From Escherichia coli (lineage in GTDB: Bacteria > Pseudomonadota > Gammaproteobacteria > Enterobacterales > Enterobacteriaceae), in NCBI RefSeq assembly GCF_022846255.1, contig NZ_AP025682.1: 64,000 nt of DNA; one strand, given 5' to 3'. Both the position numbers and the translations under genes were made by a program. Below, piece by piece: positions 46,847 through 51,097 of the stretch. The notes below the pieces were generated by a model that was given only the letters and a program-made list of their open reading frames with translations, had not been told where the DNA came from and searched no databases. Positions within the stretch are counted from its first letter, which is position 1, and each line of letters starts with the position of its first letter.

Positions 46847-49800
46847 TTATTTCTCCTCAGCGCCTTCAGTATCTGCAGGAACGGCGTTAATTGTCACAGT
46901 CACTGGTTTCATTTCATACCCTCCATATGTCAAAGAGTTGAATGTGAATGTGTATGTACCTGGCTTGTTGGTACTAAATGTACGCGTGATTTTCCCGCTC
47001 GCGAAATGGTCATTTTTCGACGGCAGGAACTGATAATCCGCCTCTGTCACCCCTTCCGGAGCCTCAATGTCGACCCACATGGTTCCTCCTACGGGGTTGA
47101 CACCCGACATCAGAGTAACCGTCAGTGTTGCAGTAGTCTTCCCGTCCGCCACCAGAGAATCTACACGCTCTGGAGATGCAGCGAGCACCGCGTTTTTATC
47201 ATCCGCGACGAATTTAGATTCGGCAGTTTTCGTCGATTCCTGACCGTCGGCCTGTTCCACTTTCGCCGTGAGTGTATATGTCGCTGCGACAGTGGTCGTG
47301 GCGGTGAAAATAGCCTGCCCTTGCTCATTCGTTGTCGCCGTCCCATTGGGAGTCAGAACTAAATTTTCCGGGCTGGCAGTCAGCGTCACTTCGCTATCTT
47401 TCAGCAGGTTGTTATTGGCATCAGTCACCGTAACTTTATACGTCTGTTTGGTTTTGCCGTCCGCCACTGCACGGTTGCCAATCACCTCAATACTGGAGAT
47501 GGTCGCCGTAGTCTTATCAGCCACAAACGTTACAGACTGCGCATTCGAAGGCTGGTCATTTCCTGCTGACGCCGTGATCTCATAGGTTCCGGCAGTCACG
47601 GAAACCACTTTCAGTTCCGCTTTACCCTCCTTGTCGGCGTTCACCATGATATTACCGTCTGCAAGCGGTTTGACGCCCCGAGGCAGATTAAAGACGACCA
47701 CAGCGCCAGGAAGAAGGTTGCCGTATTGATCCTTAACCGTTGCCGTCAGCGTAAAGGCATCTTTGCCGTTTGCCACTTTTTGAGCAGCGGCGTCTACCTC
47801 CAGGCTCGCCTGACCGGTACTGAAATCCGCCTTGAATTTCACCTTGACCGTCTTCTGAGAGTTTTTCACCGAGGCCTCGATCTCAAGTTCCCCTGCAACC
47901 GTTGACATAAGCTCAATGTCCACTTTCCCTGCCGCATTGGTTGTTACTGTATTCCCCGTCTTGCTGGTCACACCCTGCGGTAAAGTCAGCGTAACTTCTT
48001 GCCCCTGCAACGGGTTACCATAGCTGTCCACGACGGTCAGGGTTATCTGGTTAGCAGACTGTCCATTAGCCAGTTGGTTATTAACCTTCACTGTCATATC
48101 ACGAATCTCAGCCTTAGATGCGTCACCTGCAACATTCAGCACCAGTGGCTGAGCAACGGCATTTTGGCCGTTCACTCGCGGCATCACAGACAACTGACCC
48201 GCGGCAGATCCCAGCGTTAAGGTCGACACGTAGACCCCATTACCTTTCTCTGTCCAGTTTCCTGCTGAAGGACGCTCACTCCCCGTGCTGGCGGCACCAC
48301 TAAACACTGGTGCATCTGGCTTCAGCCCGGTGACCGGATTCCCGTACGCATCCTTCACGGTGAAGGTGAGTTCCGTCGTCGTTTTAACCGTTGGAGTTTT
48401 ATTGTCCGCAACAAGCGTAGAGTTCGCTGATGACATCTCTCCGGCAATAACAGTCAGCTGCGCGGCTTCGGTGGCTGCAGGCTGGCCGTTGAAGAGCGGC
48501 ATGACACGAAGCTCGCCCGTCTTTCCGCCTGTAGTTAACGTAGCAACATAGGAACCGTCACCTTTTTCGGTCCAACTGGAAACGGTCGCCCCTTCAGAGG
48601 CGGTCCCCGTCAAACTTGCCGACAACGAAAGACCACTGATAGCGTTGCCATGCGCATCTTTCGCCACCAGCGTTACGGTTGTGCTTTCACCGGCTTTTAC
48701 GTGATCTTCTGCGACAGAGACTTTCGACTGGTTTGAAGATAATGCATCAGCCACCACGGTTACTTTTGCCGCATTTGCTGCCGCGTCCTGCCCATTGAGC
48801 TTCGGCATAACGTCTAATTCACCCGCCGTAGTGCCGAGAGAAATCTGCGCAGTCCAGGTCCCGTCGCCATTATCCGTCCAGCCTGATGCCGTAGAACCAG
48901 CAGCAGCTGCGCCCGATAATGACGGTGCATCCGGATTGAGGCTGGTCACAGGGTTGTCATAGGCATCTTTTGCCGTCCAGATTGCCGTAACTGTACCGCC
49001 AACCACCGGTTTATCAGGATTCAGTGTGATGGACGAATGTGCTGCATCAAGCGGCCCGGCAACAAACTTCAGCGTTTGTTGTAACGTGCCCAGCTGATAC
49101 TGCTCGCTGAAGGCACGCACAACAACGTTCCCGGCACGGGTCGAAGAAACCGTGGCGCTGTAACCCCCTGGTTTTATTTCCGAAATGGCACCAACGGTTA
49201 CACCATTAGCGTCTTGCGGAACAAGTCGCAGGCGGCTGGCTTCTCCCGTCACCGGATTACCCTCGGAGTCCACCGCTGTCAGTGTCAGCGTGTAGGCTTG
49301 CTGACCATCAGCAACCACATCACCTGACGGCTCGTTAGCGCTCAGGGTGGAGTTTGCCACATCCATCATCGTGGCCCGCAGTTCTGCAGTGACAGTTTTG
49401 CTCATGTCATCAACGCTAACAGTAATCGTTGCCTCACCTGACTGCGTTCCGGTAGTAAAGACAGACTGATACACCCCTGCTTCAGTTTCGGTGAACTCAC
49501 CCAGTGTTGGCTTTGCCTGTGATTTAGTGGCCTTCAGGGTACGAGTCACAATATTTCCAGCCGGTTTGAAGGTTAGTTCAGTCTTGATCTGATCTTTCAT
49601 GCCCGTGACTGGCTGGCCCTCGGCGTCGCGCAGAGACAGCACCAGCGGCTTTTGCTCATTACCGTTAGCAAGCATTTGAATACGGCTCTGACCGTCAAGC
49701 GTTAACGCCGTACGATCGGCGCTCATACCAGCTCCGCTAATAACTACTTCTGTCTGCACACGTTTCGAGGCATTGCCTTTGTTATCGTAGGCAATCGCTG

Positions 49801-51097
49801 AAATCGCATAATAATTGTCTTTGCCTGCCTGATAAGCCGGGAGCGTCACTTGCCACTGGTTGCCCTGCCCCGTAATTTTTCCGCCTGCGGCCAGCAAAGA
49901 CGGCGCTTCCCATTGCACATTTTTCAGACCGTGAGTTGCTTTGCTGACCACAAGCCCCAGGGAAACCGTCTGGCCGCCCTTGCCTTCAATACGCTCAGGC
50001 AGAGCAATACGGATCACTTCAGATTTGCGATACTCAAGAACGATATTGTTATTACGCTCAACCAGGTCATAGCGGCTGCCTGCCAGCATTCGACGCTCGC
50101 GAATGCTGTCTGTATCGAGTTGTTTTTCCAGAGGTTCGCCAATCCGATAATTAACTTCCAGGCCAAAGCGAGTGTCATTCTCACCACTCTTGCCCTGCTT
50201 ATGCCCGGCACTCAGGGTCAGAAGAGGCACTGGCGTGTAATTCACTTCAGCGGTAATCGCATGTGGATCTTTCTGGCGTTTATCTTTACCAAACAGCCCG
50301 ACTTCATCGCCATAATACTGTTCATACATCAGGCTTGCGCCAAGCTGCGGCCAGGCGGGTAAATAGCCCTCAGCACGAATATCCCAGCCATTCGCCGGGC
50401 GTTCCTGATAATCCTCAACATCCGGCGATTTTTTCCAGCCAGAAGCCCGGATATAACCATTGGCGCTCAGTTTCAAATAATCACGCCAGTATTCCGCACC
50501 AACACCAATGCGGGTATGACTACGGGATAAATCATGATCGATAAAAGTATTCACCCCCGCCATCCAGTCATTTTCTGAAAAATGACGCCAGCCAAAACCA
50601 ATATTTGACTGAGTACGATCGTCGGTACGATGTATTGCCCCCTGAGTGAACAACATATTTGTCGGTGTATCATAAATCGGATAAAGCATTTCCAGCGAAG
50701 AGTCCTTCAGCGAGAAATTTTTATCGACATTCAGTTTGACGCGCGCAGTACCGTATTTCCCGAGCCACTCCTGAATTTCCTGGTTAGCTTTAGCGGTGGC
50801 CATTCCGGTAATAAAGTTACGTGTCGCATCGCTATCTGGCTGACTGCTTAAAAATGTCCCGGCATTAGCGGCAAGCGACGCGACATTTTTCTCCACGTTA
50901 TTATCAGCAGTTACCGTAGTATTTTCCATGCTCAACCGTGGCTGAACCGCATGCTGCGCACGTGCCGCCATTACTGGGGTAAAGGTGACAGCGAGTGGAA
51001 AAAGAACCTGAACAGAGATATTTGCCCACGCCACGCAGCGGGCCAGAACTGAATAACGAAATTGTGGTTGTTTATGACCTATTTTATAACGTGACAT
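46847..51097 (-). CDS. eaeH: intact intimin/invasin-family adhesin FdeC/EaeH with repeated Big domains
   Basis: 1416-aa ORF; N-terminal outer-membrane beta-domain followed by many Ig-like repeats. Confidence 0.9.
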   Translation of the reverse strand: MSRYKIGHKQPQFRYSVLARCVAWANISVQVLFPLAVTFTPVMAARAQHAVQPRLSMENTTVTADNNVEKNVASLAANAGTFLSSQPDSDATRNFITGMATAKANQEIQEWLGKYGTARVKLNVDKNFSLKDSSLEMLYPIYDTPTNMLFTQGAIHRTDDRTQSNIGFGWRHFSENDWMAGVNTFIDHDLSRSHTRIGVGAEYWRDYLKLSANGYIRASGWKKSPDVEDYQERPANGWDIRAEGYLPAWPQLGASLMYEQYYGDEVGLFGKDKRQKDPHAITAEVNYTPVPLLTLSAGHKQGKSGENDTRFGLEVNYRIGEPLEKQLDTDSIRERRMLAGSRYDLVERNNNIVLEYRKSEVIRIALPERIEGKGGQTVSLGLVVSKATHGLKNVQWEAPSLLAAGGKITGQGNQWQVTLPAYQAGKDNYYAISAIAYDNKGNASKRVQTEVVISGAGMSADRTALTLDGQSRIQMLANGNEQKPLVLSLRDAEGQPVTGMKDQIKTELTFKPAGNIVTRTLKATKSQAKPTLGEFTETEAGVYQSVFTTGTQSGEATITVSVDDMSKTVTAELRATMMDVANSTLSANEPSGDVVADGQQAYTLTLTAVDSEGNPVTGEASRLRLVPQDANGVTVGAISEIKPGGYSATVSSTRAGNVVVRAFSEQYQLGTLQQTLKFVAGPLDAAHSSITLNPDKPVVGGTVTAIWTAKDAYDNPVTSLNPDAPSLSGAAAAGSTASGWTDNGDGTWTAQISLGTTAGELDVMPKLNGQDAAANAAKVTVVADALSSNQSKVSVAEDHVKAGESTTVTLVAKDAHGNAISGLSLSASLTGTASEGATVSSWTEKGDGSYVATLTTGGKTGELRVMPLFNGQPAATEAAQLTVIAGEMSSANSTLVADNKTPTVKTTTELTFTVKDAYGNPVTGLKPDAPVFSGAASTGSERPSAGNWTEKGNGVYVSTLTLGSAAGQLSVMPRVNGQNAVAQPLVLNVAGDASKAEIRDMTVKVNNQLANGQSANQITLTVVDSYGNPLQGQEVTLTLPQGVTSKTGNTVTTNAAGKVDIELMSTVAGELEIEASVKNSQKTVKVKFKADFSTGQASLEVDAAAQKVANGKDAFTLTATVKDQYGNLLPGAVVVFNLPRGVKPLADGNIMVNADKEGKAELKVVSVTAGTYEITASAGNDQPSNAQSVTFVADKTTATISSIEVIGNRAVADGKTKQTYKVTVTDANNNLLKDSEVTLTASPENLVLTPNGTATTNEQGQAIFTATTTVAATYTLTAKVEQADGQESTKTAESKFVADDKNAVLAASPERVDSLVADGKTTATLTVTLMSGVNPVGGTMWVDIEAPEGVTEADYQFLPSKNDHFASGKITRTFSTNKPGTYTFTFNSLTYGGYEMKPVTVTINAVPADTEGAEEK

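Follow-up and report, generated by a model that had tools for sequence, protein, structure and literature searches.

The fdeC Gene and Its Product

The stretch of DNA analysed here (the window) comprises 64,000 nucleotides of Escherichia coli (assembly GCF_022846255.1, contig NZ_AP025682.1). The features of the fdeC (eaeH) locus are listed in Table 1. A single minus-strand open reading frame of 1416 aa, starting with ATG, was identified from the ORF listing, and its translation is free of internal stop codons from end to end, in agreement with the intact gene announced in the preliminary description of this DNA. The ATG is the earliest start codon in the open frame, has an AGGAA ribosome-binding site 9 nt upstream, and coincides with the start of RefSeq fdeC in collinear genomes. 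At the same coordinates, genomes 99.5% identical in DNA carry the RefSeq label "inverse autotransporter adhesin FdeC". A protein identical to the one encoded here is already present in NCBI under the name FdeC (WP_137501325.1 / BDH34607.1), and the sequence belongs to a cluster that, at 90% identity, counts 17,949 members.

Alignment with an FdeC protein from a B2 strain (RefSeq WP_001773851.1), a check of the kind that the preliminary description had proposed with FdeC from ExPEC strains, gave 1408/1416 identical residues (99.4%); three of the 8 differences lie at residues 6-12, inside the presumed signal peptide. The solved FdeC fragment (PDB 4E9L) matches aa 595-1008 with an E value of 1.2e-254. 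The product thus corresponds to FdeC / EaeH at high identity over nearly its full length. No dedicated FdeC model was matched in NCBIfam, where the top-scoring model, for the IatC N-terminus, remained under its cut-off.

Table 1. Features of the fdeC locus, in window coordinates.
Feature	Coordinates	Strand	Extent or position	Basis
fdeC (eaeH) CDS	46847..51097	minus	1416 codons + stop, intact	ORF list, translation
Presumed long Sec signal peptide	50954..51097	minus	codons 1-48	read from translation
Inverse-autotransporter beta-barrel (outer-membrane translocator)	50048..50872	minus	codons 76-350	Pfam PF11924 IAT_beta
First extracellular domain, intimin D00 counterpart	49727..50026	minus	codons 358-457	PDB 6TQD
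Stalk, eight Ig-like domains (Invasin_D3 / Big_1)	47201..49726	minus	codons 458-1299	Pfam per segment
C-terminal tip domain, probably Ig-like, not confidently assigned	46850..47200	minus	codons 1300-1416
fdeC upstream intergenic, presumed promoter/regulatory region	51098..51662		565 bp, AT-rich
Stem-loop, possible terminator	46795..46827	minus	20 nt past fdeC stop	RNA fold

Domain Architecture

Inspected by eye, the first 48 codons start with a basic N-region; the hydrophobic core (VAWANISVQVLFPLAVTFTPVMA) follows, and AARA/QH stands near residue 47. The IAT_beta profile is matched over its full length (positions 3-279/279, E 4.9e-110), and two barrel structures align with aa 113-357, that of invasin (4E1T, E 4.6e-85) and that of intimin (4E1S, E 9e-73). 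In the segment immediately following, codons 358-457, no domain was called by Pfam; intimin structure 6TQD aligns with aa 358-474 (E 3.2e-11). A Pfam search with the whole protein assigned 9 stretches to Invasin_D3 and 4 to Big_1. When submitted alone, each of the ~100-aa segments of the stalk matched Invasin_D3 and/or Big_1, with E values between 1e-9 and 1e-22. A match to one or both of these models was obtained with all nine ~100-aa segments into which aa 458-1416 can be divided, the last one falling under the curated cut-off (29.3 bits for Invasin_D3 on aa 1300-1416, against 33 bits). These last 117 aa yielded chance-level matches only in PDB (phmmer, E up to 10), while a single-sequence AlphaFold model of aa 1196-1416 is all-beta at low confidence (mean pLDDT 52.8, pTM 0.42). 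The tip domain is probably Ig-like.

Altogether, a barrel (IAT_beta, 4E1T/4E1S) stands N-terminal to a C-terminal Ig-like passenger (the D00-like domain and the Invasin_D3/Big_1 segments), as in inverse autotransporters. The barrel and long Ig-like stalk claimed from the letters alone are therefore present, in the form of IAT_beta and about ten Ig-like domains, and the domain prediction suggested at that time did find Big_1 / Invasin_D3 repeats and the outer-membrane beta-domain. Since the Ig-like domains have diverged, with pairwise identities of 17-44% at the amino acid level, repeat-mediated length variation is not expected; Tandem Repeats Finder and a second repeat search found no DNA repeats in fdeC beyond short chance matches.

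Chromosomal Setting and Flanking Signals

The gene lies between the rcl and ecp operons, with ykgA (AraC-type) on one side and aldo/keto reductase genes and LysR regulators on the other; the identity of these neighbours was confirmed by Pfam. The locus is collinear with the annotated loci of strains SCU-387, JNE112863, CU37RT-2 and IAI39, so that the position conserved among FdeC / EaeH orthologues is occupied here too. Synteny with RefSeq annotation, the 4E9L match and the alignment to RefSeq FdeC all uphold the FdeC/EaeH assignment made earlier. We estimate at roughly 95% the probability that we are dealing with an ordinary fdeC (eaeH) gene, chromosomal and at its usual locus, encoding a type Ve adhesin; no sequence feature contradicting this reading was met.

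The upstream intergenic region separates fdeC from a divergent aldo/keto reductase gene and has a GC content of 0.384, compared to 0.487 for the window. A scan of positions 46600-51800 for consensus promoters returned 6 sites, which is not above the number found in shuffled sequences (5.0 +/- 2.4), and no promoter is therefore claimed. On the opposite side, between the convergent fdeC and ykgA genes, the stem-loop downstream of the stop codon has a folding energy of -17.3 kcal/mol (z -3.6 relative to shuffles). The terminator scan did not call this element because its T-run is weak; it is possibly the fdeC terminator. A search of the whole window against Rfam gave no match near fdeC, the only match being a naRNA4/REP element at 16160-16229.

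The K-12 Lesion, IS Elements and Other Adhesins in the Window

The statement that eaeH is disrupted in K-12, with an IS3 copy near it, proved accurate: in MG1655, eaeH (b0297) is an 888-bp pseudogene abutting IS3A. What K-12 and the window have in common is the promoter together with ~876 bp from the start of the gene (positions 17808-19233 of K-12 sequence L002 align at 96.7% to window positions 51648-50222). In K-12, IS3A takes the place of window positions 46526-50221, a stretch that contains the rest of fdeC (~3.4 kb) together with the 3' end of ykgA. The neighbouring 6.2 kb (window positions 51649-57879) is absent from K-12 as well.

It had been stated that the window contains neither an IS3 nearby nor any transposase gene. 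Both statements hold. Comparing K-12 IS3A with the window by blastn gave only 12-nt chance words, and tblastn with InsE/InsF gave no match below E 0.9. Furthermore, collinear annotated references, with no transposase in the matching stretches, together cover the window completely. The presence of a hidden, degenerate IS in the window was rejected on these grounds. One site-specific recombinase is encoded in the window, the tyrosine invertase IpbA/FimX (31599-32219), which is not a transposase.

The window was also said to carry three adhesin systems. This is correct for FdeC and for HyxB, which matches the UpaB adhesin (PDB 6BEA) and is the UpaB extracellular-matrix-binding autotransporter; the third system, the ecp operon, is incomplete, being cut inside ecpC by the end of the window (base 64000), which leaves the tip adhesin gene ecpD and ecpE outside.

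A Mosaic Allele

The FdeC protein of ExPEC strain IHE3034 (ECOK1_0290; Nesta et al. 2012, 4E9L) has the same length of 1416 aa, the same domain order, locus and neighbours as the protein described here. At the sequence level, the coding body is of the B2 type, 99.5-99.9% identical to B2 strains, from whose FdeC the present protein differs by a handful of substitutions; over positions 46501-49000 it is 13-16% diverged from IAI39. The pattern is reversed in a ~900-bp segment (50966-51836) that takes in the signal-peptide start, the promoter region in full and the beginning of the divergent aldo/keto reductase gene. This segment is 100% identical to the phylogroup-F strains IAI39 and CE10 and ~4% diverged from B2 references. 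Thus, the promoter and the first ~45 codons represent the IAI39/CE10 allele, the switch occurring at about codon 45. We consider it unlikely, albeit worth stating, that fdeC is a recombinant of a B2 body and an F-type segment whose expression may differ from that of ExPEC alleles.

Proposed Function and Regulation

From the family and from the FdeC literature, a scheme for the function of the protein can be proposed. The long N-terminal signal peptide would direct FdeC through Sec, residues ~76-350 would form a 12-stranded barrel in the outer membrane, and the C-terminal passenger (D00 followed by some nine Ig-like domains, ~1060 residues in all) would exit through this barrel and fold as a rod on the cell surface. 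Possible binding targets of the rod are collagens I, III, V and VI as well as epithelial cells. Expression would normally be silenced by H-NS and induced by raised temperature or contact with host cells. We infer the secretion route, binding specificity and regulation of FdeC in this strain from precedents elsewhere. In strains IHE3034 and 536, FdeC is displayed at the surface and binds collagen and epithelial cells (PMC3324786). Binding to collagens I/III/V/VI and to epithelial cells was reported along with the crystal structure (Nesta 2012, PMC3324786), and control of fdeC by temperature and H-NS is ascribed to Easton 2014 as cited in PMC11143625. In a study of APEC, deletion of fdeC raised adhesion at 42 C (PMC11143625); the term "adhesin" therefore does not fully describe FdeC in all strains.

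We envisaged that the gene, albeit intact as a reading frame, could be cryptic, either because it is silenced for good or because missense changes have inactivated it, and play no role in adhesion in this strain. FdeC is reported to be undetectable under standard laboratory growth and to need at least 39 C, loss of H-NS or host contact (PMC3324786, PMC11143625), while the upstream region, with a GC content of 38%, is typical of H-NS targets and its allele differs from that of B2 strains having the same coding body. However, a 4.25-kb frame has been kept open, with 1408 of 1416 residues as found in many strains, which argues for purifying selection, and the promoter allele is 100% identical in many other strains. 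A cryptic gene thus appears improbable, and an ordinary fdeC is the preferred reading.

Prevalence of fdeC in E. coli

The gene was sought in 5426 complete E. coli genomes, taking coverage of at least 80% of its length as near-full. By this measure, fdeC is present in 4585/5426 genomes (84.5%) and it is at least partly held by 5077 (93.6%). The eaeH::IS3 junction of K-12 occurs in only 297 genomes of the 5426 (5.5%). Full-length fdeC has likewise been found in the commensal strains HS and SE11 and in 92-100% of all pathotypes (Nesta 2012, PMC3324786). These figures refute the idea that an intact fdeC with no adjoining IS is a distinctive state marking a pathotype rather than the norm of the species; such an idea, now very hard to sustain, draws on the IS3-truncated form of K-12 and its derivatives, on the frameshifted fdeC pseudogene of IAI39 and on BL21-type strains, which hold a barrel fragment only. 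An intact fdeC is the normal state in E. coli. The K-12 eaeH::IS3 lesion is a lineage-specific defect and K-12 the exception. Both the intactness of the gene and the K-12 lesion were already known: Nesta et al. described FdeC in 2012 as a 1416-aa protein with ~99% prevalence in ExPEC and a pseudogene in K-12 (PMC3324786).

Relation to Intimin and Invasin

FdeC, intimin (Eae of EPEC/EHEC) and Yersinia invasin are all type Ve inverse autotransporters, in which an N-terminal barrel is followed by a first domain resembling D00 and then by Big_1/Invasin_D3 domains in a chain. The FdeC of ExPEC is the protein named EaeH in ETEC H10407. Unlike intimin and invasin, FdeC has neither a LysM periplasmic domain nor a detectable C-terminal lectin-like receptor-binding domain, and its stalk is much longer (about 10 domains versus 4-5); the NCBIfam models for intimin and invasin score it far below their cut-offs. 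A genuine intimin or invasin, with a lectin-like domain at the C-terminus for binding to Tir or integrin, is scarcely conceivable here: the barrel and Ig-like architecture is shared, the barrel and a few Ig domains have matches among PDB structures of both proteins, and NCBIfam intimin_all matches aa 62-481 (E 1e-115), but this last match scores 387.5 bits against a cut-off of 1400 bits and is confined to the N-terminal third, Pfam finds no LysM, Intimin_C or lectin domain, the C-terminal 117 aa have no counterpart in PDB, and the locus is not the LEE and has no tir gene nearby. The protein thus does not qualify as an intimin (Eae), and its assignment to FdeC stands.

Implications

FdeC has been published as an adhesin, its structure has been characterised and it is a vaccine candidate, so that an intact copy has little discovery value in itself. 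K-12 is a poor reference for this region: besides the eaeH::IS3 lesion, it carries neither the PAI-X island nor the genes of the adjacent 6.2 kb. Should the exchange of the regulatory segment alter H-NS- or temperature-dependent silencing, expression could differ from that of the well-studied ExPEC alleles. The mosaic structure suggests that fdeC is shuffled by recombination like other surface antigens, and such shuffling matters for the use of FdeC as a vaccine antigen or typing marker.

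An intact fdeC gene in its canonical setting

The ORF listing of the window contains a single reading frame of 1416 codons that agrees exactly in coordinates, strand and length with the fdeC (eaeH) gene proposed in the preliminary description (see table of features). Its translation is free of internal stop codons throughout, so the gene is intact and full length, as had been claimed. The ATG is the earliest start codon of the open frame, and an AGGAA motif lies nine bases before it. A scan of the whole gene found neither tandem repeats nor long direct repeats in the DNA.

The identification as FdeC/EaeH is upheld by RefSeq annotation, by structural matches (see below) and by an exact NCBI match. 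The top fdeC matches obtained by megablast against 5426 complete E. coli genomes are 99.5% identical over 4251/4251 bases and carry the annotation "fdeC: inverse autotransporter adhesin FdeC". Compared with FdeC of the B2 strain SCU-387, 8 of the 1416 residues differ, with no gaps. An exact-sequence look-up returned the identical protein under the name FdeC (WP_137501325.1, BDH34607.1, GDA39345.1); the 90%-identity cluster around WP_137501325.1 has 17,949 members, and the neighbours of this record are those found in the window. The neighbourhood is canonical. One side has rclRABC, an aldo/keto reductase gene and the AraC/GyrI-type ykgA, which is convergent with fdeC; the divergent side has two aldo/keto reductases, two LysR regulators, a hydrolase, a flavin oxidoreductase, ykgR/M/O and the ecp (common pilus) operon.

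Coordinates of fdeC and of other features (window positions unless stated otherwise)
Feature	Position	Strand	Content
Transporter cluster	~8300-13400		Between yahK and yahJ
naRNA4 (CssrE)	16160-16229		Between yahI and yahG
PAI-X (ipbA-hyx) island	30585-36836		6.2 kb; ipbA/fimX tyrosine invertase, hyxR (LuxR-type), hyxA, hyxB; absent from K-12 and from IAI39
Segment of lowered identity	30832-35291		Only 93% identical to B2 reference
ipbA/fimX	31599-32219		Phage_integrase family, E 1e-49
hyxB	34267-36762		Autotransporter
Break in alignments	~35233-35481		Inside hyxB passenger
Replaced by IS3A in K-12	46526-50221		Locus alignment
fdeC	46847-51097	minus	1416 codons, ATG start
Retained in K-12	51648-50222		fdeC promoter and first ~876 bp of gene (locus alignment)
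Patch, putative recombination tract	50966-51836		~35 mismatches in 870 bp against B2 references
Reductase/LysR cluster	51649-57879		6.2 kb, adjoins fdeC; two aldo/keto reductases, two LysR regulators, alpha/beta hydrolase, NADH-flavin oxidoreductase; absent from K-12
ecp operon, part	60349-64000		ecpR, ecpA, ecpB, first ~550 codons of ecpC
eaeH (b0297)	314357-315244 (MG1655)		Pseudogene, 888 bp
IS3A (insE1/insF1)	315229-316483 (MG1655)		Abuts eaeH
fdeC of IAI39	15896-20148 (IAI39 locus)		Annotated pseudogene, frameshifted, internal stop

Domain organization of FdeC

The predicted N-terminal beta-barrel and long Ig-like stalk were both recovered in Pfam and PDB searches. A signal-peptide-like N-terminus is followed by an inverse-autotransporter beta-domain (PF11924, aa 76-350, complete profile, E 4.9e-110), resembling the solved barrels of invasin (4E1T, E 5e-85) and intimin (4E1S, E 9e-73), and then by an Ig-like rod in which Pfam places Invasin_D3 in nine stretches and Big_1 in four. 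When the protein was split at recurring D-x-x-G-N motifs and the pieces scanned one by one, all nine segments of ~100 aa between aa 458 and 1416 matched Invasin_D3 and/or Big_1. Big_1 is the best match for those at aa 993-1299; the tip domain (aa 1300-1416) scores 29.3 bits, under the Pfam cut-off of 33 bits. Residues 358-457, where the Pfam scan gave no domain, resemble intimin D00-D0 (6TQD, E 3e-11). The top PDB match is the crystallised FdeC fragment itself (4E9L, aa 595-1008, E 1.2e-254). Pairwise identity between the Ig-like domains is only 17-44%, the closest relatives being three at aa 682-992.

Assignment as intimin or invasin was rejected. Because the NCBIfam intimin, invasin, SinH, IatC and YchO models match the N-terminal third only, far under their curated cut-offs, and the Pfam scan revealed neither LysM nor an Intimin_C/lectin domain, FdeC has an intimin-like architecture yet is neither protein.

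Mosaic structure of the fdeC region

Over fdeC and its right flank, the window differs from B2 references by 1-7 mismatches per kb, except in a patch that spans the first ~45 fdeC codons and the entire intergenic region and runs into the beginning of the divergent aldo/keto reductase gene. There it is ~4% different from B2 strains that are otherwise 99.5-99.9% identical over fdeC, and 100% identical to strains of phylogroup F (IAI39, CE10) and others. IAI39 is identical or nearly so across positions 51001-56500 and is 13-16% different in the C-terminal half of fdeC (46501-49000), with flanks 99-100% identical. The patch thus has the appearance of a recombination tract, one edge of which falls within the presumed signal-peptide coding region, and the gene would consist of a body of B2 type joined to a regulatory and N-terminal segment of F type. 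Since identity over fdeC is only 90-95% in most genomes (3359 of 5082 records), distinct diverged allele classes appear to be exchanged by recombination. Such mosaicism is normal for a surface antigen.

Mosaicism is also strong in positions 1-47000. The best match there among the 5426 complete assemblies reaches only 98.2-98.4%, single kilobases showing 0 to 37 mismatches; the strain's lineage seems to be absent from this set. Judged by collinearity with strain Q5, the ~8300-13400 segment contains a gene cluster for an ABC transporter of sugar/AI-2 type (two permeases, ATPase, substrate-binding protein) and an ASCH-domain gene; its composition is markedly shifted (GC skew -0.13, AT skew +0.18). 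The Rfam match to naRNA4, a REP-derived nucleoid-associated RNA (64.1 bits, gathering threshold 59.5), probably explains why positions 1-25000 have a median of 27 matching places per genome.

Proposed function and regulation

From the type Ve family and the FdeC literature, the protein would be exported by Sec and its barrel inserted with the help of BAM; the C-terminal passenger would then leave as a hairpin and fold sequentially, forming a long rod on the cell surface. Recombinant FdeC attaches to epithelial cells and to collagens I, III, V and VI, with a Kd around 1e-8 M, and FdeC plays a part in colonisation of the bladder and kidney (PMC3324786).

In the account of Easton 2014 given in PMC11143625, fdeC is repressed by H-NS and its expression needs at least 39 C or host-cell contact. 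The 565-bp upstream intergenic region has 38% GC, against 49% in the window, compatible with H-NS targeting. The promoter was not placed, because a consensus scan around fdeC gave nothing above chance. A stable stem-loop 20 nt past the stop codon, between fdeC and ykgA (-17.3 kcal/mol, z -3.6), may be a transcription terminator.

Other adhesin loci

The preliminary description counted three adhesin systems. This is broadly right for fdeC, hyxB and ecp; the last is incomplete, and the remark is only partly contained in the window because its end splits ecpC, leaving ecpD (tip adhesin gene) and ecpE beyond base 64000. EcpA is a MatB fimbrillin (E 2e-98). HyxB has an Autotransporter beta-domain (Pfam) and a passenger similar to the solved UpaB adhesin (6BEA, E 6e-233); hyxB is the same as upaB, which mediates attachment to proteins of the extracellular matrix (PMC12282228). 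Within the passenger, alignments to two references break, which suggests a variable region.

The K-12 locus and prevalence of intact fdeC

The statement that eaeH is disrupted in K-12 with IS3 adjoining proved correct: the MG1655 annotation has IS3A against the eaeH pseudogene and a ykgA pseudogene beyond. Of the reductase/LysR region only a remnant, ykgP, is left. As this cluster is missing too, the K-12 locus differs from the window by no fewer than three separate deletions. The window, as also claimed, contains no IS3 and no transposase: IS3A gave only 12-nt chance words in blastn, InsE/InsF no match below E 0.9 in tblastn, and collinear reference loci covering every base have no annotated transposase in the matching stretches. 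The sole mobile-DNA-type enzyme is the invertase IpbA/FimX.

Other copies are disrupted differently. A BL21-type strain retains only a beta-domain fragment. In IAI39, whose fdeC is a pseudogene, an IS1 also lies upstream of ecpR, and ecpA is frameshifted. The IAI39 lesions represent independent decay of those adhesin loci, distinct from the K-12 IS3 event.

Megablast found fdeC in 5077 of the 5426 genomes, and in 4585 a single place accounts for 80% or more of its length; the K-12-type eaeH::IS3 junction occurs in 297, presumably K-12 derivatives. Thus, an intact fdeC is the usual condition and that of K-12 is exceptional. The same picture had been given by Nesta et al. 2012 (PMC3324786), who described full-length FdeC of 1416 aa, with a prevalence of ~99% in ExPEC and 92-100% in intestinal pathotypes, a pseudogene in MG1655, W3110 and DH10B, and full-length genes in commensals HS and SE11. 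The intact fdeC of the window is therefore a very common gene, already annotated and known from that study.
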